IMG/VR virus record: IMGVR_UViG_3300044472_000006
Span: 1-44,994 of that record
Reading direction: 5' to 3' (one strand)
Length of the DNA: 44,994 nucleotides
Source: a virus
Lineage: Duplodnaviria > Caudoviricetes
Shown: piece after piece, positions 12,532-32,360 of the stretch
Layout: each line of letters starts with the position of its first letter
How positions within the stretch are numbered: the first letter of the stretch is position 1
Notes under the pieces: generated by a model
The model's database searches: none
Seen by the model: only the letters and a program-made list of their open reading frames with translations
What the model was told of the DNA's origin: nothing
Position numbers and translations under genes: made by a program

Positions 12532-12532
12532 A

Positions 12533-12993: not shown

Positions 12994-12994
12994 A

Positions 12995-13300: not shown

Positions 13301-13308
13301 AATAAAAA

Positions 13309-15240: not shown

Positions 15241-15241
15241 A

Positions 15242-15415
15242 ATGAGTCAAAAGTTCTACATTACCCCGAAAGGAAATAAATATGATTCTCTTCTCATTGA
15301 AGAGATCCTTAAAAAGGATCTTATTAACAGTGAGCTTATTCTTCCAGAGGATAAGGAGTTCTTTCAACTCGTCTATAACACATATTGGCAATCACCGAGT
15401 CACACACGACAGTGA
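15242..15415 (+). CDS. Hypothetical protein (start MSQKFY)
   Basis: Directly follows the helicase stop. Confidence 0.5.
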   Translation: MSQKFYITPKGNKYDSLLIEEILKKDLINSELILPEDKEFFQLVYNTYWQSPSHTRQ

Positions 15416-15454
15416 ATACTGGTATGAATATAGATTTGGAATTTGTATAAATAA

Positions 15455-15637
15455 ATGGAAGCTATGACTAAGACAATGACTCACGAACACTTCTGTCCTC
15501 TTTGTAATTCATTCTATGAATGTATAGAATCATACTGTGCCCCCGGACAAGTAACTCACGATAAACAAATGTACTGTTTCAAATGCTGCACTACGATGGT
15601 TGAGAGGAAAGTTGAGAAAAACTATGAGACTGACTGA
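15455..15637 (+). CDS. Small Cys-rich protein
   Basis: HFCPLC...C...C...CFKC; same spacing style as 11079..11345. Confidence 0.55.
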   Translation: MEAMTKTMTHEHFCPLCNSFYECIESYCAPGQVTHDKQMYCFKCCTTMVERKVEKNYETD

Positions 15638-15794
15638 TCTAATTAATAAACTTCAAGATAGAGAGTCTATTAACGAAGACCCGGAGGTTTTTATAATCGA
15701 CTCTCAGGGTAAAGAGGTAAAAATCTTTGATGTAGTCCACTGGTATAACTCCACTGTTATCGGAATCGATGCTTTGATTAAAGAAAACGAATAA
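15624..15794 (+). CDS. Hypothetical protein (start MRLTDLINKL)
   Basis: M..(D/E)LI..L...DPEV pattern common in small phage proteins. Confidence 0.55.
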   Translation: MRLTDLINKLQDRESINEDPEVFIIDSQGKEVKIFDVVHWYNSTVIGIDALIKENE

Positions 15795-15806
15795 TAGGAG
15801 AAACAA

Positions 15807-16073
15807 GTGAATCTCACAATCCCACTCATTCTATCTAAAGCCCTCGAGTTAGGATCTACAGAATATGCATTGTCTCACGGGGCAAGAGAAATTAATCCTC
15901 TTCTCCAGAATCGAAGCGCTCGTATCGCTATCAATACTTCTTATGGTTCTGTTTCTGCTCTCACGTATAAAGAACTCCATAAGCGAAAGCCTATCTTGGC
16001 TAATGTGGTTGCTGGTATTGTTATTGTTGGAAATTCCTATTTGGTTCTTAGGAATGTGAGGAATTCTCGATAG
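15807..16073 (+). CDS. Membrane protein, DUF5658-like (GAxExNP)
   Basis: STEYALSHGAREINPLL plus a C-terminal hydrophobic helix; AGGAG RBS. Confidence 0.55.
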   Translation: MNLTIPLILSKALELGSTEYALSHGAREINPLLQNRSARIAINTSYGSVSALTYKELHKRKPILANVVAGIVIVGNSYLVLRNVRNSR

Positions 16074-16122
16074 TAGGTTAATTATTTCAGTAAGTTAAAC
16101 CCTCCAAATTTTAGAGTTTCTA

Positions 16123-16314
16123 ATGAACCGATATCAAGTCGTCGTAATCAAGTCTATTCGTGAGACCTATTATATCAATACTGATACTGCTGAAAGCGCA
16201 GAAGATTTGATCTATGATCAGGTTCTAGATACAGAAATTCAGCTCAAACCTGACCTTATCGAAGTTAAGGATAGTTTCATTCAATCAGTTACTGATTTAG
16301 GATCTATTGAGTAA
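16123..16314 (+). CDS. Hypothetical acidic protein
   Basis: ORF track. Confidence 0.6.
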   Translation: MNRYQVVVIKSIRETYYINTDTAESAEDLIYDQVLDTEIQLKPDLIEVKDSFIQSVTDLGSIE

Positions 16315-16321
16315 TTTATGC

Positions 16322-16508
16322 CCCGCTACTTGCTTGTTCATGGCGCACGAAGCGGTCAGTGATGCTTTCTAGAATGCCGTTGCTACGGTCTAGAATCGCC
16401 TACAACGGGCAAAAGGTCGCTGGAACGAAGGGACACTCGTCCTCGTATAGCGTACCAGGAGAGCCCCGTTTTGGCGGTTCTAGGGGGTGTGGTCAGGCAG
16501 CCACACTC
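16322..16508 (+). other. GC-rich structured intergenic element (RNA or ssDNA hairpin system)
   Basis: CTAGAATCGCC/GGCGGTTCTAG and AACGGG/CCCGTT nested stem; alternative TTCTAGA/TCTAGAA hairpin; GGGTGTGG/CCACACTC hairpin. Confidence 0.5.
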
Positions 16509-16704
16509 GAAATATCGAACAAAGAAATTGCGTATTCGATTAGAATCTAAATCATGTAAGAGTTGTAATAAACTCTTACCGAAACTCCGAAGATTAGATA
16601 AGAAGTTTTGTGATGATAAATGTCGTATTCATTTCTGGAGTAGAATGAATCCTCGCATCAAAATGTTCGAGTTAATCAATGAAGAAAATCATAGTAACAA
16701 TTAG
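16471..16704 (+). CDS. Zinc-finger protein (CxxC...KFCxxxCR); start uncertain
   Basis: CKSCNKLL...KKFCDDKCR. Confidence 0.55.
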   Translation: MAVLGGVVRQPHSKYRTKKLRIRLESKSCKSCNKLLPKLRRLDKKFCDDKCRIHFWSRMNPRIKMFELINEENHSNN

Positions 16705-17089
16705 CCGCCTTCTAGAGGATGAGTACCTTCCAGAACTTCTCAAAGATCCAATCGAATACGTTGACTGTGATCTATTCGAATTCTTTGATGATGAAACGAC
16801 TAAAATTGAAAGAGTAGAGGTAGAGAATGATAATTCTTAAGATTCCGCGGCAGGATAATCTAATTAATTTCCTTGCCGAAGTCGCTAAGAATCTAATGAT
16901 CATTGCTGTTTGTTCTATTCTCTTTCTTACAATTTACTATGCAAACCTCTGAAGAAGATTACTTTCTAAAAGTCGAGAAGACTCGAGTTCTTAATGAAAG
17001 AACTGTTAAGTCTTCCAGATTTGTCGCCAAAGAGATCATCATCTATGATAGATTCGGACATATAGTTAAAAAGATCACAGGAAAGAATC

Positions 17090-17311
17090 TTGATTGAAAC
17101 AATCAATACACAGTGTAAACGTTGGGAAGCAGATATTGATACTCTTCAATATCTAATTTCAAAGGTTCTCTGGGCAAGATCAGAGGAAGATCCTATTGAT
17201 ATTCTTAGAGAGATGCGAGCTAAATGCGAACGACTCTCAATTGAAATAGGAGAGTTCATTGAGCGGCACAAAGAAGGTAATAGAGATAGTAAAGATGAAA
17301 TCTCTACCTAG
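17090..17311 (+). CDS. Hypothetical protein
   Basis: ORF track. Confidence 0.5.
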   Translation: MIETINTQCKRWEADIDTLQYLISKVLWARSEEDPIDILREMRAKCERLSIEIGEFIERHKEGNRDSKDEIST

Positions 17312-17568
17312 ACTAGACTTCACAGAACTTCTTAGAGACAGCTGGAGAATCTATAAAAGCGTTCCTCAAAATAAATACGCTAATACAAAGAGGCTTTAAA
17401 GAATTCAAATGCTAACAGAACGAGACTTGCGATTTTATCTTAAAACTTGTGAAGAGGAACTTAATCGAACAAAAGATCAATCTGTCTATGCAAAGAAAAC
17501 ATATTCTCTAAACGATCTTCTCAAAGCTAGAATCAATGAAATTCTTTACATCCTAGGAGATACAAAAG

Positions 17569-18390
17569 ATGTCGTCTAAGATTATCTCAATTTCTCCCTC
17601 CACTCTTAATCTCTATTCGTCTTGTGCTCGTAAATTCCAGTTCGAGAAGGTTCTCTCTTTCCTTCCTAGAAATAAGTCAGTTTCTCTAGAGAAAGGCGAT
17701 CTCTTTCATAAGTTTCTCGAGTCCTATTATCAAGGAAAGATTGATCAACGGGAACAGAATATTGTCCGCTCAATTGAAGATGGCCGCCGCCATTCGATTA
17801 ATCTTGGATTAGGAGTAAATGATATTGAAGGCGAAGTAAAAGTATTTAAGGAATATGCTCTTCATTATGCCGGTGAGAATTGGATTCCGATTGCGGTAGA
17901 GAAACCTTTCGATATCTTTCTGACTGAAATTGATGGATACGAATTTCATCTCGAAGGAAAGATTGATCTGATCGTCAAACAGAATGAGCAGATTACTCTA
18001 GTAGATCATAAAACAACTTCTAGATTTTCAGATCCATCTCCCCTATCTCATCAATTTATGGCATATGCTTGGGCTCTCGAACAGAATCTAATTATTGTTA
18101 ACACAATCGGTCTTCAAGAATCTTACACGGGGGCACAGAGATTTCGACGAGCAATTCTCAATTTCGATGATTCTGTTCTAGATGAATGGAGGGAAAACGC
18201 ATCCTATATCTGTACAATGATTAAACTCGGAATGGAGAAAGGGTTCTTCCCTCCTAATTTCACCTCTTGTGATAAGTACGGCGGCTGCATGTTTAGAGAT
18301 ATCTGTTCAACTAGACCAGATACAAGAGAGTATAAACTGAATCGAGACTTCGTTAAAGGTGAGCCTTATGACATTTTTGGTGCAAAATGA
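17569..18390 (+). CDS. PD-(D/E)XK nuclease, Cas4/AddB-like with putative Fe-S cysteines
   Basis: N-terminal C (SSCARK), GDLFH, VEKPF, GKIDL, VDHKT, QFxxY and C-terminal CxxxxxCxxxxxC. Confidence 0.85.
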   Translation: MSSKIISISPSTLNLYSSCARKFQFEKVLSFLPRNKSVSLEKGDLFHKFLESYYQGKIDQREQNIVRSIEDGRRHSINLGLGVNDIEGEVKVFKEYALHYAGENWIPIAVEKPFDIFLTEIDGYEFHLEGKIDLIVKQNEQITLVDHKTTSRFSDPSPLSHQFMAYAWALEQNLIIVNTIGLQESYTGAQRFRRAILNFDDSVLDEWRENASYICTMIKLGMEKGFFPPNFTSCDKYGGCMFRDICSTRPDTREYKLNRDFVKGEPYDIFGAK

Positions 18391-18714
18391 GAACTAATGA
18401 ACTTCTCTCCGGTCTAAGACAAAGACGGAATGAACTCAAGAATGAACTAGCTGGAATTGAAGCTGCAATTGCAGGGCTAAAAAACACGGTCTAATCTATC
18501 AAAAAAAAAAAAAAAAAAGAGACAGTATACTTTTAAGTTTAAAGCAAAGTGTATTTACTGCGGAGAGGAATTTAACGCTCCAAGACAACTTCAAAAGTTT
18601 TGTTCCAAACCCAAGAAGTGTTCTAATCTTTGGTGGGAGGATGAGAAAAAAGGAAAACACACTGTCTCTGCTACCAACAAACCCACTATTCTTATTCCAG
18701 GAGCAAAGAAGTGA
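18387..18714 (+). pseudogene. Coiled-coil plus zinc-finger gene split by a +1 frameshift at A6, with an A18 tract
   Basis: MRTNELL...IAGLKNTV* (18387-18494). The +1 frame gives KTRSNLSKKKKKKRQYTFKFKAKCIYCG...KFCSKPKKC...GAKK* with no start codon of its own. Confidence 0.6.
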
Positions 18715-18902
18715 CATCTTCGCCCAGAAAACATTTGATTGAAAGCGAAGACTGGATCAAGAATCATACTGATCCTTTTACTAAGATGATTCTTGTGGAT
18801 GCAAAAGAATTGCTTCTTCTAGTGAGAAAGAAGAATTTTTACCAAGATCAATATGAGAAAGAATTAGGAAAGTATCATACTGATCCTATTGAGAAATCGT
18901 AA
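18711..18902 (+). CDS. Hypothetical protein
   Basis: AGGAG RBS; GTG start. Confidence 0.55.
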   Translation: MTSSPRKHLIESEDWIKNHTDPFTKMILVDAKELLLLVRKKNFYQDQYEKELGKYHTDPIEKS

Positions 18903-19150
18903 TGAGTCATATTCATAAACTTAAGAGAGTAAAAGTAAAGAAAGTCATTTACAAATGTACAGAATGTCCATCTTGGTATCCAGAAGCTTTAGCTTTCGGA
19001 GTGAAAACTATTTGCTGGAAATGCGGAGATGAGTTTATTCTCCGCAAGCTAAAGAACAATCGAGTTAAACCTATTTGTGATAAGTGTAGAGGAATTCTCT
19101 CTCCTGAGATTGATGTCGATAATTTAATGAAAGGTCTCGGACTAAATTGA
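18902..19150 (+). CDS. Zinc-ribbon protein
   Basis: HxH...CxxC, CxxC, CxxC. Confidence 0.65.
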   Translation: MSHIHKLKRVKVKKVIYKCTECPSWYPEALAFGVKTICWKCGDEFILRKLKNNRVKPICDKCRGILSPEIDVDNLMKGLGLN

Positions 19151-19602
19151 AAACCTCTGATCTAGGTAAGTCATTTATCAAATCCTGGGAGAGTCTTAGT
19201 TTAAATGCTTACCAAGATCCAATCGGTCTTTGGACAATAGGATACGGACACGTTAGACACGTCAATCCGATAGATATAATTTCAGAAGAAAGAGCAAATG
19301 AACTTCTCGAAGAAGATTTAATTCCCGGCGAAGGATGTTTAAATTTTCATTTTAAAGAATTAAATCAAAATCAATTCGACGCTCTTTCATCTTTCATATT
19401 TAATCTCGGAGTAAATACATTCCTAAAATCCTCTATCTTTAAATTTTTAGAAGCGAAAAGACTCGAACTCGCAGCTAGATATATTAAATTCTATAATAAA
19501 GCTAGAAATAATGGTGAGCTAATAGAGCTACCAGGATTGACTAAGAGACGAAATTCAGAGTTTATAATGTTTACTGATGGGAGTTATCTAAATAACGAAT
19601 GA
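19147..19602 (+). CDS. GH24 phage lysozyme (endolysin)
   Basis: E-x8-D-x5-T triad (WESLSLNAYQDPIGLWTIGYGH), QNQFDAL.SF.FNLG and GL.KRR..E. Confidence 0.93.
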   Translation: MKTSDLGKSFIKSWESLSLNAYQDPIGLWTIGYGHVRHVNPIDIISEERANELLEEDLIPGEGCLNFHFKELNQNQFDALSSFIFNLGVNTFLKSSIFKFLEAKRLELAARYIKFYNKARNNGELIELPGLTKRRNSEFIMFTDGSYLNNE

Positions 19603-20330
19603 AACTAAAAGACGTCGATCTAAAGAAACGATTTATGATCGCATTAATCGGCCAAACCGGCGCAGGTAAATCCGCCGCCGCCGGTTCATTTCACAAAGTA
19701 GGACCAATTAAATTTTTTGATTTCGACGGCCGGATGAAAGGTGTAAAGAAAGTCCATCCCGATGCAGACATTGATTTCGATTCCTACGGACCAAAAGAAC
19801 TCAATTCAATCTTTAGACCTGCATTCAACAGTCTCGTTCACTCTTGTCCTTGGAAGACTATTGTAGTCGATTCACTAACTTCACTCTCAGTTACTACGAT
19901 TACTGCCCAGATGTTAGCTAGAGGAGACAGTGGTAAAACTACCAAGGGTGGCATTTATGTAACAGGCTGGGATGAAATTAATGGAGAGACAGTTTTCATT
20001 TCACAGATTCTAGATGTTGCAAAAGTTCTTCCTTGTAACGTCATTATGACTTTCCATCCGATCACACGAACAGTAGGAACTGAAGGTAATGCGCAGAAGA
20101 TTGAAACGGTCGCGGCGTACGGAAATAAGATCAATCAAATAGCTCTAAACTATTTCGATGAAGTGTACTATATTGATACAGAGAAAGGATTTACCGATAA
20201 AGATCCAATGAAACGAGTCGCATACACAGATGCAAACACAAAAGCGATCGCAAAGTCAGCTCTCCCGCTACCGCCGAAAATGGATATCAGCGGCGGACTG
20301 TACGATGCGATCATGTCGTATCTCAAGTAG
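19599..20330 (+). CDS. P-loop ATPase, AAA_24/Sak4-like recombination protein
   Basis: GQTGAGKS, FDFD, IVVDSLT, FH and FDEVY; sits between a Cas4-like nuclease and an SSB-like gene. Confidence 0.75.
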   Translation: MKLKDVDLKKRFMIALIGQTGAGKSAAAGSFHKVGPIKFFDFDGRMKGVKKVHPDADIDFDSYGPKELNSIFRPAFNSLVHSCPWKTIVVDSLTSLSVTTITAQMLARGDSGKTTKGGIYVTGWDEINGETVFISQILDVAKVLPCNVIMTFHPITRTVGTEGNAQKIETVAAYGNKINQIALNYFDEVYYIDTEKGFTDKDPMKRVAYTDANTKAIAKSALPLPPKMDISGGLYDAIMSYLK

Positions 20331-20339
20331 GAGGTAAAG

Positions 20340-20537
20340 TTGGATCAAGTAGATCATATTATGCAGTTTTTTCAGTATGAACATCTACCTCCACATCTGC
20401 AAGAAACCTCTAAAGAATTTGCTAAACTAGCAGATATTTTGATAACGTCTCTACCAAGAAATTCTGAACGTACCGTAGCCCTTCGTAAATTACTTGAAGC
20501 AAAAGATGCAGCAGTCAGAGCCAAACTAGCAAAATAG
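20340..20537 (+). CDS. Small helical-hairpin protein, possible Tad1/Acb2-like anti-defence sponge
   Basis: FF.YEHLP.HLQ...LP...ERTVALRKLLEAKDAAVRA; AGGAGG RBS. Confidence 0.5.
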   Translation: MDQVDHIMQFFQYEHLPPHLQETSKEFAKLADILITSLPRNSERTVALRKLLEAKDAAVRAKLAK

Positions 20538-20549
20538 GAGAATAAGCAA

Positions 20550-20939
20550 ATGCCAGCGCTCACGCCGACAATTCAAGACATCAAAGCCTCAGAGCCAATT
20601 CCGCCTGGACGCTACCGAGCGAAGGTCGAAAAGCATGAGGAGAAAGTCTCAAAGCCGAATAAGGATACCGGCGAGACTTCAATGAATGACTGGGTCCATT
20701 TTGAGATCCTCGATTCCGGAGATTTCAGCGGTCGGAAACTCCGGCATTGTTTCTCAGAGAAGGAACCCAATCGTCGCTCCGCGATTCAATTCTTCCAAGC
20801 ACTCGGAGCGGATGTCGTTCCTGGAGAATCTTACAAGTTTGAGAATGCTCCGGGTCGGGAACTGTATATCTTCGTCCGTCAAGAGTTGTACGACGGAAAG
20901 ATGCTCCCAAAGATTTCAGACTTCCAGAAGATTGACTAG
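20550..20939 (+). CDS. OB-fold ssDNA-binding protein, DUF669-like
   Basis: PIPPGRY..KV...E.K.SK...FEILD.G.FSGRKL; located after the Sak4-like ATPase. Confidence 0.7.
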   Translation: MPALTPTIQDIKASEPIPPGRYRAKVEKHEEKVSKPNKDTGETSMNDWVHFEILDSGDFSGRKLRHCFSEKEPNRRSAIQFFQALGADVVPGESYKFENAPGRELYIFVRQELYDGKMLPKISDFQKID

Positions 20940-20964
20940 TTTTCATAGAAAGAGAGACTAGTCA

Positions 20965-21081
20965 ATGTCAAGTATTGATGGACCTGATGACGATCTTGAT
21001 TCTGATCTTCCAGACGAAGACTGGGAGGATGAAGAGGAGGAGGACGATAACGAAGACAGAGAAATTGGCGGAGAAGAGTAA
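20965..21081 (+). CDS. 38-aa hyperacidic peptide
   Basis: MSSIDGPDDDLDSDLPDEDWEDEEEEDDNEDREIGGEE (22 of 38 residues D/E). Confidence 0.6.
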   Translation: MSSIDGPDDDLDSDLPDEDWEDEEEEDDNEDREIGGEE

Positions 21082-21163
21082 CTAGTCAGAAGGATCGGCT
21101 GTACTTCTGATTAAACCTTGAGCCGCCGCAAGGGTAAAGATACGGCGGCATTTAAATAGTTAT
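21078..21163 (+). ncRNA. Candidate structured cis-regulatory RNA
   Basis: Closing stem GTAACTA/TAGTTAT, stem GTCAGAAG/CTTCTGAT, and alternative pairings CCTTG/CAAGG versus GCCGCCG/CGGCGGC. Confidence 0.45.
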
Positions 21164-21299
21164 GAGAAAGCAATGTATCGTCAGAAATCCTCGATGTTAT
21201 AAGAAGAGAAAAGCAAACAAGAGATGTAAGATGCACTATATGAGAGGTCTTAGACATCTTATTACTTTCAGACCAAATGAGAAACTAAGATTTATATGA
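21162..21299 (+). CDS. 45-aa basic Cys/His peptide
   Basis: MRKQCIVRNPRCYKKRKANKRCKMHYMR...; ATGA overlap with the next gene. Confidence 0.55.
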   Translation: MRKQCIVRNPRCYKKRKANKRCKMHYMRGLRHLITFRPNEKLRFI

Positions 21300-21481
21300 A
21301 TAAACGATATCGGATCCTTTTCTTAAACGCTAATGGTACAGTAACTCTACTCGAAGTCTCTACGGAATTCTCAAATCTCTCTAATATTATCAAGTCATAC
21401 GATCATGAAGGATGTACATTTCGAGTAGAGCGGATTACAGATATTAGTGATCTTGTAAGAAAGGAATATGAAAAATCCTAA
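21296..21481 (+). CDS. Hypothetical protein
   Basis: ORF track; overlap-coupled to neighbours. Confidence 0.55.
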   Translation: MNKRYRILFLNANGTVTLLEVSTEFSNLSNIIKSYDHEGCTFRVERITDISDLVRKEYEKS

Positions 21482-21854
21482 GTTCGATTCTCTTCTAAAG
21501 AAGATGTCAGAGATTCATGACAAGAAGAACTCTGACTATGCAAACGACTCAAATCCCTACTCTAATTTTGAGTTCGCATCATCTTTTTCTCAAGTCCCTT
21601 TATACAAAGTATATCTAGTTTTAATCGGAGTCAAAGTTGCTCGCTTACATGAACTCTTGGGCAAAGACAAACAGCCGAAAAATGAAAGTATTGATGATAC
21701 TCTGCTCGATCTTGCAACTTATACTGCTATCATGTCCTCTCAATTGATAAGTGAAGATGAAGAGATACAGCTTTATAATCGGAACAGACTTCGGCCTTCA
21801 GATGACAATCTTTCAATCGATTTCTCTAATGGAGGGAGTAAAGAAGTTATTTGA
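21468..21854 (+). CDS. DUF1599 / nucleotide-modification-associated domain 1 (Nmad1)-like protein
   Basis: KKNSDYA...NF...K..RL...ESIDDTLLDLA.Y. Confidence 0.7.
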   Translation: MKNPKFDSLLKKMSEIHDKKNSDYANDSNPYSNFEFASSFSQVPLYKVYLVLIGVKVARLHELLGKDKQPKNESIDDTLLDLATYTAIMSSQLISEDEEIQLYNRNRLRPSDDNLSIDFSNGGSKEVI

Positions 21855-21940
21855 GATTCTAGAAAAAGGAATAGAAACAAGAAATAACCAGCATCCTTAT
21901 CTGAAATCTGAAGAGATTAAAGATTTCTGGTATGTAATTT

Positions 21941-22159
21941 ATGAATGAGAGAGATGACGAGAGGAAGTCAGAAACAGTCTGGATCCTATTAGGATTCCAT
22001 CCAGATACTTCTCCTAGAATTGTCTATGATGAGATTTTGAGACTCAGAGAAATTGCTCGAAATGAAGCGAAACAAGCTGAAGAGATTAAGGCACTGAAAT
22101 CCGAGCTAGCCCAAGAACGTCTAACTCTCAAAGACTTACCAGCGTTACCAGAGAAATAA
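21941..22159 (+). CDS. Hypothetical protein
   Basis: ORF track. Confidence 0.55.
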   Translation: MNERDDERKSETVWILLGFHPDTSPRIVYDEILRLREIARNEAKQAEEIKALKSELAQERLTLKDLPALPEK

Positions 22160-22168
22160 ATAAAGATT

Positions 22169-22255
22169 GCCGCCGTGGTAAAACTGGCAGACACTCTTGG
22201 CTTAAACCCAAGCGACGAAAGTCAAATGCGAGTTCGAATCTCGCCGGCGGCACCA
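22169..22255 (+). tRNA. tRNA-Leu (anticodon TAA)
   Basis: Acceptor GCCGCCG/CGGCGGC plus ACCA; anticodon arm CTTGG-CTTAAAC-CCAAG; long variable arm; T-arm GCGAG-TTCGAAT-CTCGC. Confidence 0.93.
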
Positions 22256-22261
22256 ATTTAA

Positions 22262-24694
22262 ATGTCTAATTATGTTCCAGGAATAGGAAATCCCGCCGCC
22301 AAGTTAATGATAGTCGGCGAGGCCCCAGGAAAGTATGAAGATGAAAGATGTGAACCCTTTGTCGGTCCTTCAGGTGATATTCTTAACAGCCTGTTGACTG
22401 ATATTGGTGTCTCAAGATCAGAAGTCTATATCACAAATATTATCAAGTATCGCCCTCCCGATAATGATCTTCGCCGTTTGTCTGAAATCAACATCAAAGT
22501 AGAAGATCAACTCCCTCAACTCTGGTCAGAGATTGACACAATTAAACCTAATGCTATTCTTGCTCTAGGAAATTATGCCTTTCACCATATTACAGGGCTC
22601 GGAAAAATTGACAAGAAAAGTAAGTCCGGATACTCCGGTATATTTGATTACCGCGGGTCAATTCTTAGTCCGATTAACAGGGTCTACCCCAAAGTCATTC
22701 CTTCCATACATCCAGCGAACTTACTTCCTGGGCGGGAAGGTATATCATTTGGCACCAGGGCTTACATCAAGCTTGATTATGGACGAGCAGCAGAAGAATC
22801 AAAATTTAAAGATTTTCGACTTCCACAAAGAAACATCGAAGTCTGCCGCTCGGCGGCACAACTGTACAGATTTCTAGAAACATATCGGTCTCATGATGAG
22901 GTCTCAGTTGATATCGAAACTTATCAATGCATCCCTTCTTGTATTGCTCTGGCTTTTGTTCCTTACCACGCTATATCTATTCCTCTTCTACGTTCAATTG
23001 ATCTAGTATCAGATTCAGATCTAGTAGTTATCTATGAGCTATTAGCTAAGCTCTTTCAGCGAGTTAAAGTTCTTGGTCAAAATATCAAGTTTGATGAACA
23101 GAGGCTCTTCTTTACTTCACGCCTTCCTATTAGAGTTATATACGATAGTCGCATTCTTATGCATTGTCTGTACCCTGAATTTCCTGGACGACTTCAATTC
23201 ATCACTAGCATTTTTACGAAGGAACCATATTACAAGGATGAAGGAAAAAGTTTTGATCCTTCTAAGGATAAGATCGAAAGACTCCTAATTTATAATGCAA
23301 AGGATGCCGCGACTACTCTAGAAGCTCATCAGGTAATGATTAAAGAGGCTGAGGAGAGAGGATTATCTTCCTTCTATAATGATTATCTGATGAAACTTCA
23401 TCCTATCTATGTCAATATTGAACGACGAGGATTTCGAATTGATAAAGATAAAAGAGAAGAACTTAGAAAGAAATATGAGATCCTCCAGAAAGAACATCAG
23501 AAAGAGTTAGACGATCTCGCAGGTTTTTCAGTCAATGTCGCCTCTCCTAAAGCTGTTCCTAAACTTCTATATGAAGTTCTTAGACTTCCAGTAAGAGCGG
23601 GATGTGATGAAGATACTCTAGTAGCACTATTATGCAATAATACTAAGAATGACAAACAAAGACGAGCTATCGATCTAGTACTTAAACTCCGACGATTCCG
23701 AAAGACTAAGTCTACTTATCTTAATGCCGAACTCGATTTCGACGATAGACTTCGATGCTCAATTAATCAATGCGGAACTGAGACAGGTAGACGATCTTCG
23801 TCTGTTCTCAAGCCGCCAACTAGACCGATTAAAATCGGTATCTCTTTACTTACTCTTACAAAGAGAGGAGATATTGGTTCTGATATTCGGGAGATGATAG
23901 TAGCAGATGAAGGTAAATCAATTTGCGAAATTGACGTTGCTCAAGCCGAAGCTCGTGTCGCTGCTATTCTTAGTGATGATAATGAAACGCTTGAAATGTT
24001 CGACACGATCGATATCCACTCTCGAACAGCACATTGGTTTTTTGGCACTGAAGAATCTACTATTAAATCAAAATTTCCTGATCAAAGATATTCAGCAAAA
24101 GAAGGACGATATTTAGGTCAATACGGCGGCTCAAAAAGGCGTCTAATGACTTCAATAGCATCTAATGCTTATAAACTACATATCGGCTGTGCTCGGATTG
24201 ATGAGTGGCATTGTGATGGGAAGCATCTTAATCCCTCAGAATGGAAATGCGGTCAATGGCTCGAGGCGTTTCATTCCTATACTCCAAAAATTAAGAAAGT
24301 CTTCCACAGAGCTGTTCAGAATCAGTTGATGACTGATAGAACAATCGTCGGACCTTTCGGACGATCTCGAACTTTCTTCGAGAGATATGATGATGAACTA
24401 TTAAGATCAGCCTACGCTCATGCCTGTAGTTCAATAGTAGCAGATCATGTCGGGCATGCAATGATTAGATTGATTGAGATCAAACCTGATATTGAGATTC
24501 TTCTTGAATTTCATGATGCTCTTTATTTTCAGGATTACGACGACAAAATTCTCGAGACTGCTAAACTAGTAAAGAATGAACTTGAAAAAGAAATTGACTT
24601 CTCAAAAGGATCGTTTAAGCGAGGAAAGTTAAAGCTTCCAGTTGACATAAAGATTGGAAAGAATCTTAAGCATTTGAAAGAAATAAAGCTTTGA
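22262..24694 (+). CDS. polA: Family A DNA polymerase with N-terminal family-4-like uracil-DNA glycosylase domain and 3'-5' exonuclease
   Basis: UDG: GEAPG, FVG.SG, TN..K.RP, HPA. Exonuclease: DIET, N.KFD, YN..D. Polymerase: TETGR.SS, D..QAEAR, R..AK.......YG, HD. Confidence 0.92.
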   Translation: MSNYVPGIGNPAAKLMIVGEAPGKYEDERCEPFVGPSGDILNSLLTDIGVSRSEVYITNIIKYRPPDNDLRRLSEINIKVEDQLPQLWSEIDTIKPNAILALGNYAFHHITGLGKIDKKSKSGYSGIFDYRGSILSPINRVYPKVIPSIHPANLLPGREGISFGTRAYIKLDYGRAAEESKFKDFRLPQRNIEVCRSAAQLYRFLETYRSHDEVSVDIETYQCIPSCIALAFVPYHAISIPLLRSIDLVSDSDLVVIYELLAKLFQRVKVLGQNIKFDEQRLFFTSRLPIRVIYDSRILMHCLYPEFPGRLQFITSIFTKEPYYKDEGKSFDPSKDKIERLLIYNAKDAATTLEAHQVMIKEAEERGLSSFYNDYLMKLHPIYVNIERRGFRIDKDKREELRKKYEILQKEHQKELDDLAGFSVNVASPKAVPKLLYEVLRLPVRAGCDEDTLVALLCNNTKNDKQRRAIDLVLKLRRFRKTKSTYLNAELDFDDRLRCSINQCGTETGRRSSSVLKPPTRPIKIGISLLTLTKRGDIGSDIREMIVADEGKSICEIDVAQAEARVAAILSDDNETLEMFDTIDIHSRTAHWFFGTEESTIKSKFPDQRYSAKEGRYLGQYGGSKRRLMTSIASNAYKLHIGCARIDEWHCDGKHLNPSEWKCGQWLEAFHSYTPKIKKVFHRAVQNQLMTDRTIVGPFGRSRTFFERYDDELLRSAYAHACSSIVADHVGHAMIRLIEIKPDIEILLEFHDALYFQDYDDKILETAKLVKNELEKEIDFSKGSFKRGKLKLPVDIKIGKNLKHLKEIKL

Positions 24695-25002
24695 ACTATC
24701 TAAACTTCGGAAAGAGAATAGCTCAGCGTTCACCGAATAACTTTAAGCATTCAACTATTATTCTTCGCGGCGGAAAGGTTGTCTCATATGGCTATAATCA
24801 TGATGATATACATGCCGAACAAAATGCATTGTCAAAGCTGTGGCCGAATAAGAGAAAAGGTACGACTGTTCTTAACTTCCGTATTGGCCGCCGTGGTAAC
24901 TTACTTAACTCTAAGCCTTGTGAATTTTGTTTAGAGTTAATCCGCAAGTCAAAAGTGGCAAAGATCATCTATAGTACAGAAAATGGATTTGAGGAACTAT
25001 GA
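24691..25002 (+). CDS. Zn-dependent cytidine/dCMP-deaminase-fold protein
   Basis: H.....GG...S.GYN, HAE, SKPCxxC, I.YST. Confidence 0.88.
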   Translation: MNYLNFGKRIAQRSPNNFKHSTIILRGGKVVSYGYNHDDIHAEQNALSKLWPNKRKGTTVLNFRIGRRGNLLNSKPCEFCLELIRKSKVAKIIYSTENGFEEL

Positions 25003-25274
25003 GTGAAATAATCAGAGAAGTTGATGAGTCCAATAAACCTTTTCCAGATAAACACTTAGAATTAGGGCTTCGAGTTGATGAGGCAGCAGAGCAACTTGAT
25101 AAAAGTTTATACCAGTTATTCGAGGCTTGTAAAGCTTTATTAAACTCAGATAGTTATAGCTCTAGTCAAGCTCTAGAGAGTGTTAAGCAGTCAACTTTAG
25201 CTAGTAGACTAAATGAGTCAATCTTAGCTCAGACTACAGTACAGTGGCTAAATTCTAGGAGGAGAAGTGGATAA
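24999..25274 (+). CDS. Hypothetical protein
   Basis: GAGG RBS; ATGA overlap. Confidence 0.6.
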   Translation: MSEIIREVDESNKPFPDKHLELGLRVDEAAEQLDKSLYQLFEACKALLNSDSYSSSQALESVKQSTLASRLNESILAQTTVQWLNSRRRSG

Positions 25275-25455
25275 AGAATTCTCACGACCAATCTTAGATT
25301 TTGGTCCTTTTAAAGGAAAGCCAGTTCCTATTGACCAGGCTTCGACATCTACTCTTCAATATATAATTGACAATTATGCTCTTCCCAGCGATCTACATAC
25401 TCAGATTGAGAATCAATTAGTTCTCAGGAAATTGATTGAGGAAGTTGATGCTTAA
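25267..25455 (+). CDS. DUF3820-like small protein (divergent copy)
   Basis: LDFGPFKGKPV.I......LQYI. Confidence 0.55.
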   Translation: MDKEFSRPILDFGPFKGKPVPIDQASTSTLQYIIDNYALPSDLHTQIENQLVLRKLIEEVDA

Positions 25456-25627
25456 GATCGAGATAATGCCGTTCGGAAAATACAAAGGCGAACGAATCGA
25501 GAATATTCCTACAGATTATCTTGAATGGGCATTGGGAGAATGGAACTGGGAAGATCGAAGGATTCTCTACGAAGAGTTTGCTAATCAATTAGCTCTAAGG
25601 CGAGGAGAAGGAGTTAAAAGAGAATGA
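25448..25627 (+). CDS. DUF3820-like small protein
   Basis: MPFGKYKGERIENIPTDYLEW. Confidence 0.75.
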   Translation: MLKIEIMPFGKYKGERIENIPTDYLEWALGEWNWEDRRILYEEFANQLALRRGEGVKRE

Positions 25628-25715
25628 AGAAAGAAAAATGTACAGTTAAAGACTGTAAGAGAATTTTTTGGACTCGATCAAAATCTCCTATTTGTTGGAA
25701 ACACCGACAGACTAA

Positions 25716-26879
25716 ATGACAACTTTTCTCGACGACTTGCTCGATATGACAAGTGAGTTTGAGACTCCAGAAAACTATATCTATTGGAGCGGTCTTTGTG
25801 CAATATCGGCGGTCGTTGGAAGAAAGATATGGCTTGACAAATTCGGTTATAAGCTCTATCCAAATATTTACGTTCTCCTTGTCGGAGACTCAGGACTTCG
25901 AAAGAGCTTCGCGAACTCTATTGCAGAAAAACTAGTAGAACCTTTACATGTCACTCGAATTATTGGAGGAAGAAATTCAATTCAGTCGATCGTTAGTGAA
26001 ATGGCAAAAGCGACAACATTTGAAAACGGCGGGCCGCCGCTGTTAGATTCCTGGGCCTTCCTTAACTCCGGAGAGTTTATCAATCTAATCTTAGAAGATC
26101 CTCAAGGTATCTCGATTTTAACTCAATTATATGATGCCAATTACAATCAGAAATGGACGAATACTCTCAAATCTTCTGGACGAGAGATTCTTAAGAACCC
26201 ATACGTCACATTACTCGGTGCTTCAAACGAAACTCTACTTAATCAGGCATTACCCAAAGAAAGTGTTACAGGCGGTTTTGTCGCAAGAACAATCTTTGTC
26301 CATGAAAGCAAGCGACGTCTACTTAATTCGCTTATGGATGCGCCGGCTAGAGCTATTGACTATAGCAAACTCTCTGAATATCTTCGAGCCATTTCCACCC
26401 TTAACGGACCATTCAAAATTGAGGACGCGGCAAAGAAATTCTACAAAGAATGGTATCATGAATTCTATGCGAAAAAACACGAAGATAAAACGGGCTATAC
26501 GGATAGAATGAATGATTCTGTTCTAAAGGTCGCTATCCTTTTATCTCTAAACGAAGATTTAGATTTAACAGTTAAGCAAAGGCACCTAGAAAAAGCTCTA
26601 GGCTCCTGTATACAATCCGGAAAAGCTGTAGTTAGAAACTCTGCCGCGGCTGGAAAATCTGAGTTGGCAGAGAAAACTAGAATAGTCCTTTACGATCTAA
26701 TTAAGAATGATGAAATCGCTCGAATCAAATTTCTACAAGCTCATTACGGTGATATTGATTCAATTGAATTTGATCGAGTAATTGACAATCTTATTCAATC
26801 AAATGCAATTGATGTATCAAGGAGAGAGAAGGAGTCGTATTATAAATTAAAGCCAGAGATTAAGGAGAGATATCTTTGA
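25716..26879 (+). CDS. DUF3987/YfjI-like P-loop ATPase (putative replicative helicase) with C-terminal winged-helix-like tail
   Basis: ETP..Y..W, YPN.YV.LVG.SG.RKS, LT.LYD, GG..AR..FV. Confidence 0.75.
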   Translation: MTTFLDDLLDMTSEFETPENYIYWSGLCAISAVVGRKIWLDKFGYKLYPNIYVLLVGDSGLRKSFANSIAEKLVEPLHVTRIIGGRNSIQSIVSEMAKATTFENGGPPLLDSWAFLNSGEFINLILEDPQGISILTQLYDANYNQKWTNTLKSSGREILKNPYVTLLGASNETLLNQALPKESVTGGFVARTIFVHESKRRLLNSLMDAPARAIDYSKLSEYLRAISTLNGPFKIEDAAKKFYKEWYHEFYAKKHEDKTGYTDRMNDSVLKVAILLSLNEDLDLTVKQRHLEKALGSCIQSGKAVVRNSAAAGKSELAEKTRIVLYDLIKNDEIARIKFLQAHYGDIDSIEFDRVIDNLIQSNAIDVSRREKESYYKLKPEIKERYL

Positions 26880-27109
26880 AACGAGTATTCGAGTACAAGG
26901 ATTTCTGTCCTCAAGGTCATCCGTATGATGAACAGAATACATATATCTATAAAGGGAATAGACGATGTAAACGCTGTAATTTAGATCGATTCCTTAGACG
27001 CCAGAGAGCTAAGGATGCTCAGAAGAGAATCGACAGACGAATAAAAGAAATTGAGGAAACTAAAGCTCAATTACGAGCGATGGGAGTAAAAATAGATGAT
27101 GTTTCTTGA
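26876..27109 (+). CDS. Stand-alone CPxGH...RxCxxC zinc module (usually appended to phage HNH nucleases) plus coiled coil
   Basis: CPQGHPYDEQNTYIYKGNRRCKRC. Confidence 0.7.
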   Translation: MKRVFEYKDFCPQGHPYDEQNTYIYKGNRRCKRCNLDRFLRRQRAKDAQKRIDRRIKEIEETKAQLRAMGVKIDDVS

Positions 27110-27305
27110 GTTTCATAATCGTCAAGGGTATGTAATCAAGCTTAATATTGGAGCTGTAATTGCATTTCTTCAACAAGAAGAGGAAACTGTAGTAATTTGT
27201 ACAGGAGATGTTCGAATTATGATTAAAGAGTCAGTAGAGGAAGTTACTAAGATTATTGATCGAATGATTTTCTCAATGAATGCTCAGGCAGGAATTAGAC
27301 GATGA
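27096..27305 (+). CDS. Hypothetical protein (FlbD-like pattern)
   Basis: I.LN...V......T.I......I..KESVEEV. Confidence 0.55.
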   Translation: MMFLEFHNRQGYVIKLNIGAVIAFLQQEEETVVICTGDVRIMIKESVEEVTKIIDRMIFSMNAQAGIRR

Positions 27306-27511
27306 ATGAACTGTATCAAATCGATGATGAATTCGGAGTAGGAGGAGTAGTCGTCCAAGATGATTTTGTAGTGGACGCTCCTCCTTACTACCGATTCTTG
27401 ATTGCAAAGAAATTCTCGGACTGGTTAAAAAGACGTCCAAAATATATTAAGGTAACGCAAATCCTTTCATCTTCCGCCGCCGACCTCTCATTTCGAATCG
27501 TTCAAAAGTAG
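27302..27511 (+). CDS. Hypothetical protein, last rightward gene
   Basis: GG.VV....VV.APP; overlaps the converging gene. Confidence 0.55.
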   Translation: MNELYQIDDEFGVGGVVVQDDFVVDAPPYYRFLIAKKFSDWLKRRPKYIKVTQILSSSAADLSFRIVQK

Positions 27512-27665
27512 GAGATTCACTTTTCTCATGCTCAGGAGACTCAGTCTCAGATTCATTCGCTCCTTCTCTCATAGCAATTTTCTGCTCTCGAGGATTAAGT
27601 CTTCTCTTACCTCGAACCTTTTCAATACTAGAAGCAAGATTTTTAATCGAACCAAAATTATTCAT
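27447..27665 (-). CDS. Small charged protein ending RRRKMKGFALP
   Basis: ATGA-coupled to the upstream gene; shared C-terminal motif. Confidence 0.7.
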   Translation of the reverse strand: MNNFGSIKNLASSIEKVRGKRRLNPREQKIAMREGANESETESPEHEKSESPTFERFEMRGRRRKMKGFALP

Positions 27666-27847
27666 AGTGCCATTCCCTTCATCTTTTTCTTCCTTCTAAT
27701 ATCTATATTATGTTTAGCTTCCGCCGCTGCACCTTTAGCGGTCTCCTTATTCCCATGCATATAACCAAGCTTATTCATCGTTCCATAGATTGCACCAGGA
27801 TTATCACCGTACTCTTTTTTAAGTTTCTCTTCTAAGAATTTAGGCAT
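27662..27847 (-). CDS. Small basic protein ending RRKKKMKGMAL
   Basis: MPKFLE.KLK.EYG...IYGTMNK.GYM.G.KET.KG. Confidence 0.75.
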   Translation of the reverse strand: MPKFLEEKLKKEYGDNPGAIYGTMNKLGYMHGNKETAKGAAAEAKHNIDIRRKKKMKGMAL

Positions 27848-27849
27848 GG

Positions 27850-28044
27850 CTAGAGTCCCATTCCCTTCATTTTCTTTTTTCGTCGTAGTTTTCCTAGGGT
27901 CAATGCAAGCCTCGATCTCTGTCCAACTTTTCCAGAACTGTGTTTATGCTCTTCAGCAAATTCATATGTAGATTTACCAGCTGTTTTAGCTGAAGCTGTA
28001 AGAGCACCTTTATGTTTGATAGCACCTTGAATCCAGTTAGACAT
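27850..28044 (-). CDS. Small basic protein ending RRKKKMKGMGL
   Basis: WIQGAIKH.GAL...R.RLA.TL; GAGG RBS. Confidence 0.75.
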   Translation of the reverse strand: MSNWIQGAIKHKGALTASAKTAGKSTYEFAEEHKHSSGKVGQRSRLALTLGKLRRKKKMKGMGL

Positions 28045-28050
28045 GATTCC

Positions 28051-28410
28051 TCACTTAGAAACGGCTGTACCAACAGTTACACTAATAGAAGCAATCTGTC
28101 TAGCTACTCTAAATTTTAAATCATTATGAAGAGTACCAGCGCTGACAGTAATAATAGTTTCGCCCTCGGCTTGAGCAATTACCCAGCATCTATTAGAGTC
28201 GGTAGTATCAATTACTGTTGTTACAATCGCAGAGTTTCCAGTACTACAGGAAATTCCGCCTGGAATAGGCATAACACCGCCGGTATTATCATAAGCTACA
28301 ACATCCACAGGACTCTTTTGAGCGGGGGTTAAACTAAATGCAGCTTCCGGCGGCTGAGCAAATAAAACAGACGCTGTTAAAATAATGACAAAAAGAACAA
28401 ATTTTTTCAT
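28051..28410 (-). CDS. Secreted Ig-like protein
   Basis: Signal peptide MKKFVLFVIILTASVLFA; AYD..G, S.GN..I.T and A..EG.T.ITV Ig-like pattern. Confidence 0.7.
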   Translation of the reverse strand: MKKFVLFVIILTASVLFAQPPEAAFSLTPAQKSPVDVVAYDNTGGVMPIPGGISCSTGNSAIVTTVIDTTDSNRCWVIAQAEGETIITVSAGTLHNDLKFRVARQIASISVTVGTAVSK

Positions 28411-31400
28411 CGAACAGAAGCCCTAAATCCTTTCTTTTTCTTGGGTTCCTCAGAAAATCTCGGTTCTCCTTCATATTGGAAAGACTCTCCGAGAAGTCCA
28501 GGTAAATATGTCGCTAACGAACCAATAGGACCTAGTTCTGATAGTTCTTTCAATGGATCAGTTACACTCATTGGCTCTAACATTCCTAATGCCTTTGAAG
28601 GCACTTCAGGAAGATCAGCGAGATCAGATAGGCCGGAGGTTTCCATCTGTGCATACTTACCCGGAGCACCCATCTTATAAATATCAGCCCAAGGAGGAGC
28701 GATTCGACCAGATCCAGTATCAGGATTGAACCAAAGATTAGTATAGTTCTTAGGACCAGTAACTAATTTACCTTTACCAGATCGTCTTCCTATGTAAGTC
28801 TGAATGAGTCTTACAACATCAGGAGTAGCCGAACCAAAAGGAGCCCAAGTTAGTTTACCAAATCGAGCTTTTAAGAATCGAGGAGAATTTGGATCTAAGT
28901 CAGCCTCTGCTCCTAGCATTTGACTTGCACCTAAAAGAGCCACGCCCGTTCCAACAAGAGCACCAGCCTGACGGAGGTATTCTTTGCGAACATTTGCAGG
29001 CATTTCGCTTCTCGGGTCAAGTAACGCTTGCACAGTTTTCCCAAATTGTTGGTACTTTGATAAAGAAAATCGAGTTGACCAAAGAACATTGTTCAGGAAT
29101 GGAATTGCACGTTCACCTTTTGTACCAAGAGAGCCCCGTCCAGTTGTCAGATTTGCAAGCTGTGCCGCTGCTTCATAATTAGATTTATTCTCAGGACTCA
29201 TCTCTCCAAGATTCTTTGTAAGATTATCGAAAAGATGGGCTCTCATTAAATTCACATACACTTGTGAAGATCGTTCAGCCGCGGCAACGCCTTTTCCTAG
29301 GATTGGAATTTTAGGAGCATAATAAGATCCATGAATTTCAGCCGACGGGTCGAAACCAGAACCGATAAATTTTCCTCCAGCCTCTTCAAACAAAGAAGGC
29401 TTAACTTGTCCGTTTTCAATCCGAGGCTTAAATTTTGGATGATTCAAAAGCGATAATTCAATTTCTCTGGCTTTCTCAGGCGAGAAAAACGATTCGACGC
29501 TTTTCTTCAACATTCCAGCAGCTTCAATCGGATGGGCTAATGTCGCCGATCGAGCTTGTCTTAATGGAACGCCGATGTCAAGAGATGATTTTATCGATCG
29601 AAAGAATCCAGCAGCTTCTGCGAGATAGTCTCCTAAAGACTCAGGCTTTTTTGGACCGACTTGAGATTGACGAACAAAATTATTGGCGATATCGTCGATA
29701 GGACTTTTACCTTCTCGTTCTTTTGCTTGTTCAGTTTCAATTTTTCGTTGAAGAGCATCAGCCTCAGCTTGTTGTCTTACCTGAGGTTTAATTTTATCCG
29801 CTTTTGCAGCAGCTAGTTCTTCGCCTTGTTGACCTTTAAGAATCTGATTCTGAAGTTTTAGTTTCTCTCGCTCGGAACGAAGTTCGGCTGCTTTCTCATC
29901 TCTGCCATTTTTAATCTCTTCGGCCTCCATTGCTCTTAGGATTTTATCTTGTAAAGCAATTCTATCTCTAGTAGGCTGATCACGAATTTCTTCTCCCGCC
30001 TGCCCTTTTCCTACAGCATCAGCGATCTTAACAGTATCTCTAAATTCAGATTGTCTCTGTCTCTCTTGAGCATGAGCCTGATCTGGATTAAGAATTTGAT
30101 CTGGAGTTAAAGCTTCGTCCGTCGGCGATTCACTAATAATTTCTCCAGTTTGTTTATCAATCCGAGCTGGTTTCTCTGGAAGCGGCTCAACTTGAATCGG
30201 CGGCTCATTCTCATTTGTCTTCCCCTCCCCCAAGAGCTTCTCAATCTCAGAGGTAAGGTCATGATATCCTCCTTCTTCTCCTAGAGTTCTCTTCGCTTGA
30301 GCAGAAGTAGGAATGGATTCACCGAAAGACAAATCTCGATGCTGAACAGTAGTCTCTTCTCCAGAAGCTTTTCTGATACGAACTACATTCCCAGATCGTT
30401 TAATAATCTGAACTGGCTCTCCTTGATATTTAACTTCCATTCGGGAGAGATCTTCTTCTGGAGTCTTTCCCTTCTGTCTCTCAAGAATTGACTTCCATCT
30501 CTCTCCGAGATTAGCTTGTTCTTCAGGAGTCAAAGTCTTCTTTCCAAATATTTTATTCTTAACAGTTTCGATCTCGTTCGCTCTGGCTTCTAATTCATCT
30601 CTAGAAGGACGAGTTTCTTCCAGATCCCACATGCCTCTTTCCCTAACCATATCTCTTAGAGGAGTGGTACTTCTTAATTCTCGATATAATTTTATTAAAG
30701 CCTCTCTATCCCTTCCAGCAAATCCAGTAGAGTATTCATGAGGAGTTTCAGTTCCTCGATAGAGAGCGGATTTAGTAGCTTCATGAGGAGTTTCGAAACT
30801 AAAGTCCGCCGCCGTTTCTTCGGGTAGCAGATTACCTTCAGAATCTACATAAGCTCCTTCAAGATTATATCCGTAATCTTTAGCAGGATATCGTTCTCTC
30901 TTCGGAGGACCTTGACCTAAGTCTTCAGCAAATTCAGAAGAAGCTCCTCGAGCTTTTCTTTCAGCTACTGCATAGCCGTGAGGTTTCTCAGCTTCAGTAC
31001 CATGAGTTTTTTCATGAGCGATTTTATCTGCAATAGACTGTACAAATTCTTCAGGAGAAGCAGACTCTTTAGCAATATTACGAAGGTTTAAGTAAATCTT
31101 ACCCCTAATATTTTTAGCCCTAGCTCTCGGATCAGCTGTAAAACCTTCAAGCTTCGCACCAGTCTCTTCACCCGTCGCATATTTAGCCGCATCCTCAGCG
31201 GTAACATCAAAATATTTAGAAATAGCTCTAGCAGTTTCTAATGATTCCGGCGAGAGATTTCTATACGCATCTTGATCTTCAGTATTTTCAAATTTAATAG
31301 GTTGTTGAAATTCAAGATCAGTTACATCAGGAGTCTGAGCAGATTTAGTTTTCTCAGCTTTTAGGGCTGATTCGATTTCAGTTTTCGATGGCGGCAGACG

Positions 31401-32114: not shown

Positions 32115-32157
32115 GGAAATTCCTCATTTGAAATTTACGATAAGGTTCCATTTCTTC

Positions 32158-32358
32158 TTACTGTTCTTGTTCAGGATTACCAGATAGTCCTCTTAGACCA
32201 GCTAAAAGGATTGGATTAGGTCCTCCTGAATCTTCTCCAGTAGGAGGAGTATCTCCACCTTCTGATAATGGCTGACCTTCAATTCCATAATGTCCTTCAA
32301 AATTATCAGGCTGACCACCGTACATAGATTTAAGTTTATTAAAGAAATTACCAAGCAT
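32158..32358 (-). CDS. Small Gly/Pro-rich hypothetical protein
   Basis: ORF track; packing. Confidence 0.5.
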   Translation of the reverse strand: MLGNFFNKLKSMYGGQPDNFEGHYGIEGQPLSEGGDTPPTGEDSGGPNPILLAGLRGLSGNPEQEQ

Positions 32359-32360
32359 AA

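Follow-up and report, generated by a model that had tools for sequence, protein, structure and literature searches.

Family A DNA polymerases (PolA) that carry an N-terminal uracil-DNA glycosylase (UDG) are known from several groups of phages. According to the accessible text of PMC10201439, to which, as with every paper cited below, our statements are limited, the SPO1-like fusions are active and the N4-like fusions inactive, and the fused UDGs of phages phiLo and YerA41 excise uracil from the template, after which the abasic site is bypassed (PMC13697223). Here we analyse a UDG-PolA gene in the virus record IMGVR_UViG_3300044472_000006 (IMG/VR; Duplodnaviria, Caudoviricetes), whose full 44,994 nucleotides are referred to as the window. 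An initial annotation had flagged an Nmad1-like gene, a tRNA gene, the UDG-PolA fusion and a deaminase gene as a candidate base-modification or uracil-handling module. All four parts lie where it had placed them, but their grouping as a module mostly reflects chance gene order. The UDG-PolA gene belongs to the core of a large family of uncultured phages, in which it probably replicates the genome and excises stray uracil; the other flagged genes are probably passengers rather than partners in base modification, and the bases of the DNA are probably ordinary.

The UDG-PolA fusion and its phage family

Like the SP15-/SPO1-like enzymes of phiLo and YerA41 (PMC13697223, PMC10201439), the window protein has at its N-terminus a family-4-like UDG that includes the catalytic Glu and His; an exonuclease and a PolA domain follow. 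In the cited text the SP15-like enzymes are at least 1000 aa long and contain the large inserts 1 and 2 as well as a C-terminal domain, whereas the window enzyme has 810 aa, and its 45-kb genome contains no detected thymidylate-synthase homologue, PolX or ligase. Thymidylate synthase, deaminase and dUTP pyrophosphatase, the set that accompanies thymine modification in SPO1/SP15-type phages, are not found together in the window. N4-like PolA (cluster 17 in PMC10201439) is closer in length (800-900 aa), likewise has a fused family-4 UDG and an MCM-related helicase, and goes with no DNA modification known to that source; its UDG, however, has lost the catalytic residues, which the window enzyme and 107/119 homologues retain. 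In N4, moreover, an AEP primase domain is part of the helicase (PMC4889955); none was detected in the DUF3987 protein of the window. By length and gene content the present group fits neither the N4-like nor the SPO1-like description in these sources. It forms an abundant UDG-PolA group, distinct from the SPO1/SP15 and N4 groups of the cited papers, in which the uracil pocket is kept, the Fe-S cysteines are absent and no thymine-modification pathway was detected.

A protein search returned 1309 relatives among 7998 scored candidates, and both UDG and PolA are present in all of the best 120 homologues. Two scans of viral contigs yielded at least 114 loci of about 840-860 stretches estimated; together with the window and two short metagenome loci that have its polymerase variant (L117 and L118), the 114 were dereplicated at 90% PolA identity to 95. 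Their common order is exonuclease, zinc finger, Sak4, SSB, a variable slot, polA, a second variable slot and DUF3987. The slots flanking polA hold, in different loci, ParB-methylase, deoxyribosyltransferase-like, MazG-like or dNTP diphosphohydrolase genes; a ParB-N6/N4 methylase occurs in 36/92 relatives and tRNA-Leu(UAA) in 32/92, the two being nearly mutually exclusive. Distant versions of polA, helicase and exonuclease are found in four GenBank phages, where polA again adjoins the DUF3987 gene, the closest GenBank PolAs having 22-28% identity. Single-protein locus searches returned nothing for PolA or the deaminase, and a sequence pattern for the window's subclade matched 0 viral contigs and five metagenome sequences, three of them by chance.

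The fusion matches both UDG (E=1e-26) and PolA (E=4e-35). As initially described, the UDG is family-4-like, with GEAPG and HPA intact and the cysteine of TNxxKC replaced by tyrosine (KY); the PF and TN motifs are intact as well. In family-4 UDGs, four cysteines bind a 4Fe-4S cluster. The enzymes of Thermus thermophilus (1ui0) and Thermotoga (1l9g) have the GE(A/G)PG, PFVG, TN and HP motifs in common with the window UDG, which differs from them in being fused to a polymerase and in lacking the 4Fe-4S cysteines: the protein begins just before the UDG core, with neither the N-terminal CxxC nor the fourth cysteine. Since the TNxxKC position (Y63 in the window) is Cys in 0/119 homologues, the change to tyrosine is a family trait. 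The residues of the uracil pocket are all present (E20, E26, F33, N59 and H150, representing family-4 motif A, the motif B His and the pocket Glu/Phe/Asn), and all five, with F or L at position 33, are kept in the 107 homologues mentioned above at about 40-55% overall identity. Judged by its motifs, the window UDG would work like a family-4 enzyme, but it is not classed as a member, the Fe-S cysteines being gone.

By analogy with the phiLo and YerA41 enzymes (PMC13697223), the UDG would sit ahead of the polymerase site and remove deoxyuridine, the abasic site would then be bypassed and repaired by host enzymes, and such excision would protect the genome against dUTP-rich pools and cytosine deamination. 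Alternatively, the UDG domain might serve chiefly to guide the template or to support processivity, a role proposed for N4-like PolAs, with weak or no uracil excision. The loss of the TNxxKC cysteine in 119/119 homologues and the decayed pocket of some clades would fit such a role; retention of the complete pocket in most homologues at this level of divergence does not, and we hold this alternative to be improbable.

In the polymerase, motifs A, B and C (D558; R609/K613/Y621; H751-D752) and all Exo I-III residues of a full-length exonuclease domain (D217-E219, D278, D348) are present, and a confident Klenow-like model (predicted local distance difference test 92) aligned with Klenow over 519 residues (model 187-806; Z 34.5, root-mean-square deviation [rmsd] 3.3). 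The window has the subclade variant L530/Y617/S723, corresponding to Q677, F762 and Q849 of the E. coli enzyme. Four close proteins (51-55% identity) share with it the Y at the F762 position, where the family has H, and the Q677L and Q849S changes, except that one of the four is truncated ahead of the Q849 position; the fingers of the subclade also contain a Cys/His insert. The minor groove is read by Q677 and Q849. The variant may reflect looser checking or a fit to a special template.

Deaminase and DNA modification

The proposed base-modification module gains little support from comparison with relatives: the deaminase is absent beside polA in them, one of the outcomes that the initial annotation had named as speaking against the module. 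No deaminase was found between polA and the helicase in any of the 81 dereplicated loci that span this interval, and in L117 and L118 polA runs to the helicase without one. Whole-record searches, which covered 40 of 44 near-complete records, found it in 0/40 by Pfam and in 0/40 by our own profile, which recovered the gene of the window. A hidden Markov model built from 142 homologues detected it in 1/119 family loci, L075 (one of the four records left out of the whole-record searches), 3.9 kb upstream of polA; a sequence pattern gave four loci, of which one was true, and a word-indexed search matched the deaminase only to itself. Among the genomes examined, a deaminase of this type (FirrV-1-A29, see below) adjoins polA only in the window. 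The polA stop does overlap the deaminase start, as pointed out initially, by 4 nt (TTGA), but overlaps of this length occur throughout the operon (19147/19150, 19599/19602, 24999/25002 and 26876/26879), so that this one is not special. Gordonia phage GTE2 (HQ403646) also has a deaminase gene overlapping polA; there the cluster comprises PolA, a classical dCMP deaminase, thymidylate synthase, dCTP pyrophosphatase and a kinase, and the phage has a primase; of the last four, the window has none.

The deaminase has a cytidine deaminase (CDA) fold with an HAE/PCEFC zinc site and matches PF00383 above the cut-off (34 bits). PHROG and GenBank label it a dCMP deaminase, and its top PDB match is a phage dCMP deaminase (TM-score 0.70). 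These matches would fit a routine role on dCMP or dCTP, in which the enzyme supplies extra dUMP to the thymidylate synthesis of the host and the fused UDG clears the resulting uracil, in this lineage only. Against this, solved dCMP, cytidine, RibD and TadA deaminases are about equally distant (TM 0.65-0.75), whereas the FirrV-1-A29 family, minimal CDA-fold deaminases of giant viruses and phages, is far closer (TM 0.92, rmsd 1.4 A; Atlas 0.96), the window enzyme differing from it in its polA-adjacent position. The signature of that family is present, with a minimal fold of about 105 aa, S14, H20, N36, HAE, R64, KPCxxC and Y94. In dCMP deaminases a long loop lies between the GYN strand and HAE; the window protein has just four residues between N36 and H41, compared to about twenty in the GTE2 enzyme, and it is strongly basic (isoelectric point 10), as are 98% of 142 relatives, a comparison made with no dCMP-deaminase control and with a query that may favour basic hits. 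A routine dCMP/dCTP role is therefore doubtful.

In addition, a tRNA gene lies within 2.5 kb of the deaminase in 6/9 other inspected loci, with none within 4 kb in 3/9, although this proximity may reflect shared accessory regions, and two of the six (XacN1 and RAS14) may be related. Fold, missing loop, basic charge and tRNA proximity together lean weakly towards an RNA or single-stranded DNA substrate, and whether the enzyme acts on a polynucleotide such as tRNA rather than on dCMP is about evenly balanced. With 1496 representatives at E<=0.001, the FirrV-1-A29-type deaminases are a widespread viral family of minimal, basic and often tRNA-adjacent proteins; a literature search, to which most subscription papers were closed, gave no report on their substrates or on the sequence words of this phage family described below. 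Both IMG/VR loci with such a deaminase carry a rare tRNA-Ile(UAU) (L075:7321-7395 and L125:2021-2113), that of L075 being the only one among the 114 family loci.

No pathway for base modification was apparent. Thymidylate synthase (PF00303) was found in 0/40 relatives, whose whole records were not searched for dUTPase or ThyX; scans of the window showed no thymidylate synthase (53 open reading frames [ORFs]) and no nucleotide kinase or glycosyltransferase, and none of the three was present among 126 representative neighbour proteins. Nucleotide-related neighbours comprise ParB-methylase, deoxyribosyltransferase-like, MazG-like, dNTP diphosphohydrolase and NT5C proteins. Six-base palindromes are avoided in the window (609 versus 730 expected; AGATCT 5 versus 23.5, CTGCAG 1 versus 8.3), as would be expected of DNA open to host restriction. 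Because a thymidylate-synthase homologue is missing and restriction sites are avoided, the DNA is likely to be unmodified. The initial proposal can be taken to mean that deaminase, Nmad1 and UDG-PolA jointly remodel the nucleotide pool so that a modified pyrimidine enters the DNA, the situation in phages of the SPO1 or SP15 kind. In its favour, intact-site UDG-PolAs are described from thymine-modified phages in the accessible parts of PMC10201439 and PMC13697223, Nmad1 favours the slot before polA, and the polymerase has unusual residues in motifs 2, B and 6. Neither the window nor the 40 relatives has a thymidylate-synthase homologue, however, the deaminase is not conserved and lacks the dCMP-deaminase loop of GTE2, and the avoidance of restriction sites also speaks against it, leaving this proposal very improbable. 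What stands of the suggested uracil handling is likely uracil removal by the fused UDG; uracil generation does not.

The Nmad1-like gene does lie upstream of polA, as pointed out initially, but about 400 bp, with a small ORF and the tRNA gene, separate the two. Nmad1 is presumably MazG/dUTPase-like. The 128-aa product matches DUF1599 (PF07659) at 16.9 bits, below the gathering cut-off of 25, and ESM Atlas DUF1599 clusters at 0.95 (TM 0.65-0.70); 10/15 aligned members match DUF1599 weakly (E<=0.1), and the Nmad1 profile had no PDB match. Of the 19 such genes among 92 relatives, 14 lie within 1.2 kb upstream of polA, and they co-occur with the tRNA gene (Fisher p=0.007, for loci that are not phylogenetically independent). 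DUF1599 is found with dUTPase and ThyX in the accessible text of bioRxiv 2021.07.29.453957, an association that fits pool cleaning as well as modification, and the Nmad1-like protein might, very tentatively, clean the nucleotide pool. The tRNA is the usual one of the family, tRNA-Leu(UAA) making up 35/38 tRNA genes in the 114 loci, and its presence goes with a higher share of TTA codons (0.30 versus 0.18; 24 versus 38 loci), so it likely supplies UUA decoding. A gap of 6 nt separates its CCA end from the start of polA (22255-22262) and contains no ribosome-binding site, so that tRNA processing would give a nearly leaderless polA message.

Several observations weigh against reading the block as a uracil-excising polymerase among passengers. 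Some UDG-PolA clades have a decayed UDG site, which, together with the loss of the Fe-S cysteines, suggests that the UDG domain may be partly structural. The full L/Y/S triad is rare (3/119 homologues, the Y and S changes also occurring singly elsewhere), and these active-site changes could mean an altered substrate. Placement of the Nmad1-like gene before polA and its co-occurrence with the tRNA show that the slot is filled non-randomly. The window itself uses TTA little (share 0.16), and many of its small ORFs have no annotation. The scopes given for the thymidylate-synthase and primase searches and for the charge and tRNA comparisons count on the same side.

Primase searches and iterated G/C words

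The absence of a recognisable primase, remarked on in the initial annotation, holds in the 40 relatives searched and among the window ORFs. Prim-Pol and Toprim_2 primases were found in 0/40 whole records, where PF01896 primase was not searched, and no primase was seen among the 53 scanned window ORFs. A PHROG 'DNA primase' label on 25716-26879 belongs to the stand-alone DUF3987 helicase. In the accessible text of PMC4889955, DUF3987 is an MCM-related replicative helicase, often fused or adjacent to a primase, and a PriCT-DUF3987 protein has helicase activity (PMC11724360). The DUF3987 protein of the window would unwind DNA as a hexamer, and exonuclease, Sak4 and SSB would support recombination-linked replication.

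A search for signals turned up a strongly iterated word. The window contains 55 copies of the 7-mer GCCGCCG/CGGCGGC, versus 1.9 expected. The word lies on both strands and in all reading frames, and its over-representation is about 26-fold. Within the 29,403 coding bases there are 43 copies, whereas 300 synonymous shuffles averaged 1.9 and never exceeded 8; these copies fill 43/190 positions that the protein sequences allow. Four lie in the flagged block (22169, 22245, 22851 and 24124), in addition to one at 24887. An intergenic hairpin with GCCGCCG/CGGCGGC arms is located upstream of the Nmad1 block (21122-21150), and similar close pairs are found at 33111/33130 and 34512/34535.

Comparable words recur across the family. 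In 37/86 family loci of at least 9 kb, the top 6- or 7-mer is G/C-rich and at least 5-fold enriched, while 19/86 reach this enrichment with a word of a different type; the two sets overlap in some loci. The words of relatives (CGCGCGC, AGCGGC, CGGCAC and CCTCGC) are clade-specific and follow the PolA tree. Enrichment was 4.7-19.5-fold in whole or near-whole records of seven relatives chosen for strong words, compared to 1.9-6.4-fold for the top words of seven unrelated controls and 2.1-4.8-fold for those of four distant relatives. The mean gap per strand is about 0.9-2.6 kb, and over 15 strand tests spacing was more even than for 268 matched words (p=6e-6), most single tests not being significant; with both strands pooled, spacing in the window was not more even than random (p=0.2). 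In the control GTE2 (L159), CCACAC is enriched 3.3-fold, and its 58 sites on one strand are evenly spaced (p=0.0007). The presumed priming word of NrS-1, intended as a positive control, was not enriched in NrS-1, and this control failed. L117 and L118, which together comprise 2.6 kb, contain no GCCGCCG, indicating that the word is not tied to the polymerase variant, and by eye no polymerase or zinc-finger residue tracks the word across clades. A link to the ParB-methylase was rejected, as the word is present with and without the methylase, and an origin in VSP-like repair is not favoured, as single C-to-T neighbours are not depleted.

As patterns in sequence, the density and evenness of the words fit Okazaki-type start sites. 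With no recognisable primase, the leading possibility, if somewhat short of an even chance, is that priming begins at these iterated words, with primers synthesised by PolA or by host DnaG. The more specific proposal, that UDG-PolA primes itself de novo at the clade-specific word, with the DUF3987 helicase and perhaps the zinc-finger protein, is unlikely, though it has a precedent in the CCPol-MP pair of SCCmec, in which a family A polymerase and a small partner prime together (accessible text of PMC7581432). CCPol-MP-Cch2 likewise has a family A polymerase adjoining a helicase, no classical primase and a small conserved protein; CCPol differs in lacking a UDG and most of the exonuclease, which is full in the window, and Cch2 is a D5-type helicase (PMC7581432). 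Were self-priming true, selection would have written the word (GCCGCCG here) into both strands about every 1-2.6 kb, the active-site changes of the subclade would belong to word specificity, and the family would have a replisome of a new kind, one that primes itself, proofreads uracil and has start sites legible in the genome sequence. How primase-less phages prime thereby becomes testable, since each genome names candidate start words that differ between clades.

The initial annotation had also considered priming through abasic sites or nicks, in which deaminase and UDG together would create the lesions and so prime replication or damage host DNA. Gene adjacency in the window genome, the basic deaminase and the missing primase would agree with it, but the deaminase is missing from 40/40 relatives, in which no primase is detectable either, and therefore cannot be the priming device of the family, and the undepleted C-to-T neighbours of the word also tell against this route, which is extremely improbable.

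As the main alternative, the words may be host Chi-like sites that stop AddAB/RecBCD and yield 3' ends for Sak4-driven, recombination-dependent replication, with no primase signal in them. AGCGGC and ACGCGC of relatives resemble Bacillus AGCGG and Lactococcus GCGCGT (as far as given in PMC8022716), exonuclease, Sak4 and SSB are core genes, and the words follow clades as host range would. Several words are near-palindromic (CG)n, however, the per-strand spacing is more even than that of matched words, and lagging-strand priming would remain unexplained; we regard a Chi-like role as possible, but only tentatively so. A function other than priming signal or Chi-like site is rather unlikely.

Operon layout and further features

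Three reading frames cross the joined ends of the window, which is thus one phage genome of 45 kb, complete and circular; CheckV gave a completeness of 96%. The minus strand carries the structural genes and the plus strand the replication operon, in the order SNF2 helicase, PD-(D/E)XK exonuclease, zinc-finger protein, endolysin, Sak4, SSB, the flagged block and DUF3987. The features are listed in the table.

Table. Positions of the replication genes and of the other features discussed
Feature	Position	Strand	Remark
SNF2-like helicase	13309..15240	+	core module; SprT-like domain interrupts at residues 219-298
PD-(D/E)XK exonuclease	17569..18390	+	core module
Small zinc-finger protein (His/Cys + CxxC..CxxC)	18902..19150	+	conserved, 71/95 dereplicated loci including the window
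Sak4-like recombinase (AAA_24)	19599..20330	+	core module
SSB-like protein	20550..20939	+	core module; weak DUF669 match
Nmad1/DUF1599-like small helical protein	21468..21854	+	accessory; in 19/92 dereplicated relatives
72-aa ORF between Nmad1-like gene and tRNA	21941..22159	+	no family match
tRNA-Leu(UAA), anticodon TAA	22169..22255	+	acceptor stem GCCGCCG/CGGCGGC
UDG + 3'-5' exonuclease + family A polymerase	22262..24694	+	810 aa; core gene
Minimal basic zinc deaminase, viral FirrV-1-A29 family	24691..25002	+	sporadic accessory
Small QSregVF_b-type ORF	25436..25627	+	recurs in subclade locus L118, there too between polA and the helicase
Stand-alone DUF3987 helicase (SF6, MCM-related)	25716..26879	+	core polA partner; no primase domain detected
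Dispersed 7-mer GCCGCCG/CGGCGGC	1854..44550	both	55 overlapping copies = 49 separate sites

The profile of the zinc-finger protein matched generic zinc fingers only, and PADLOC gave 0 hits for ten proteins. Between polA and the helicase, two tandem small ORFs of QSregVF_b type (25267-25627) begin with PFG(K/P)(Y/F)KG. Acb2/Tad1-hairpin and cold-shock genes recur in family loci. A protein with Pro/Thr repeats (2423-3466) adjoins the terminase gene. Finally, a long (ACT)n-like low-complexity tract lies between the two gene blocks at 10938-11059, possibly as an origin or a variable region.

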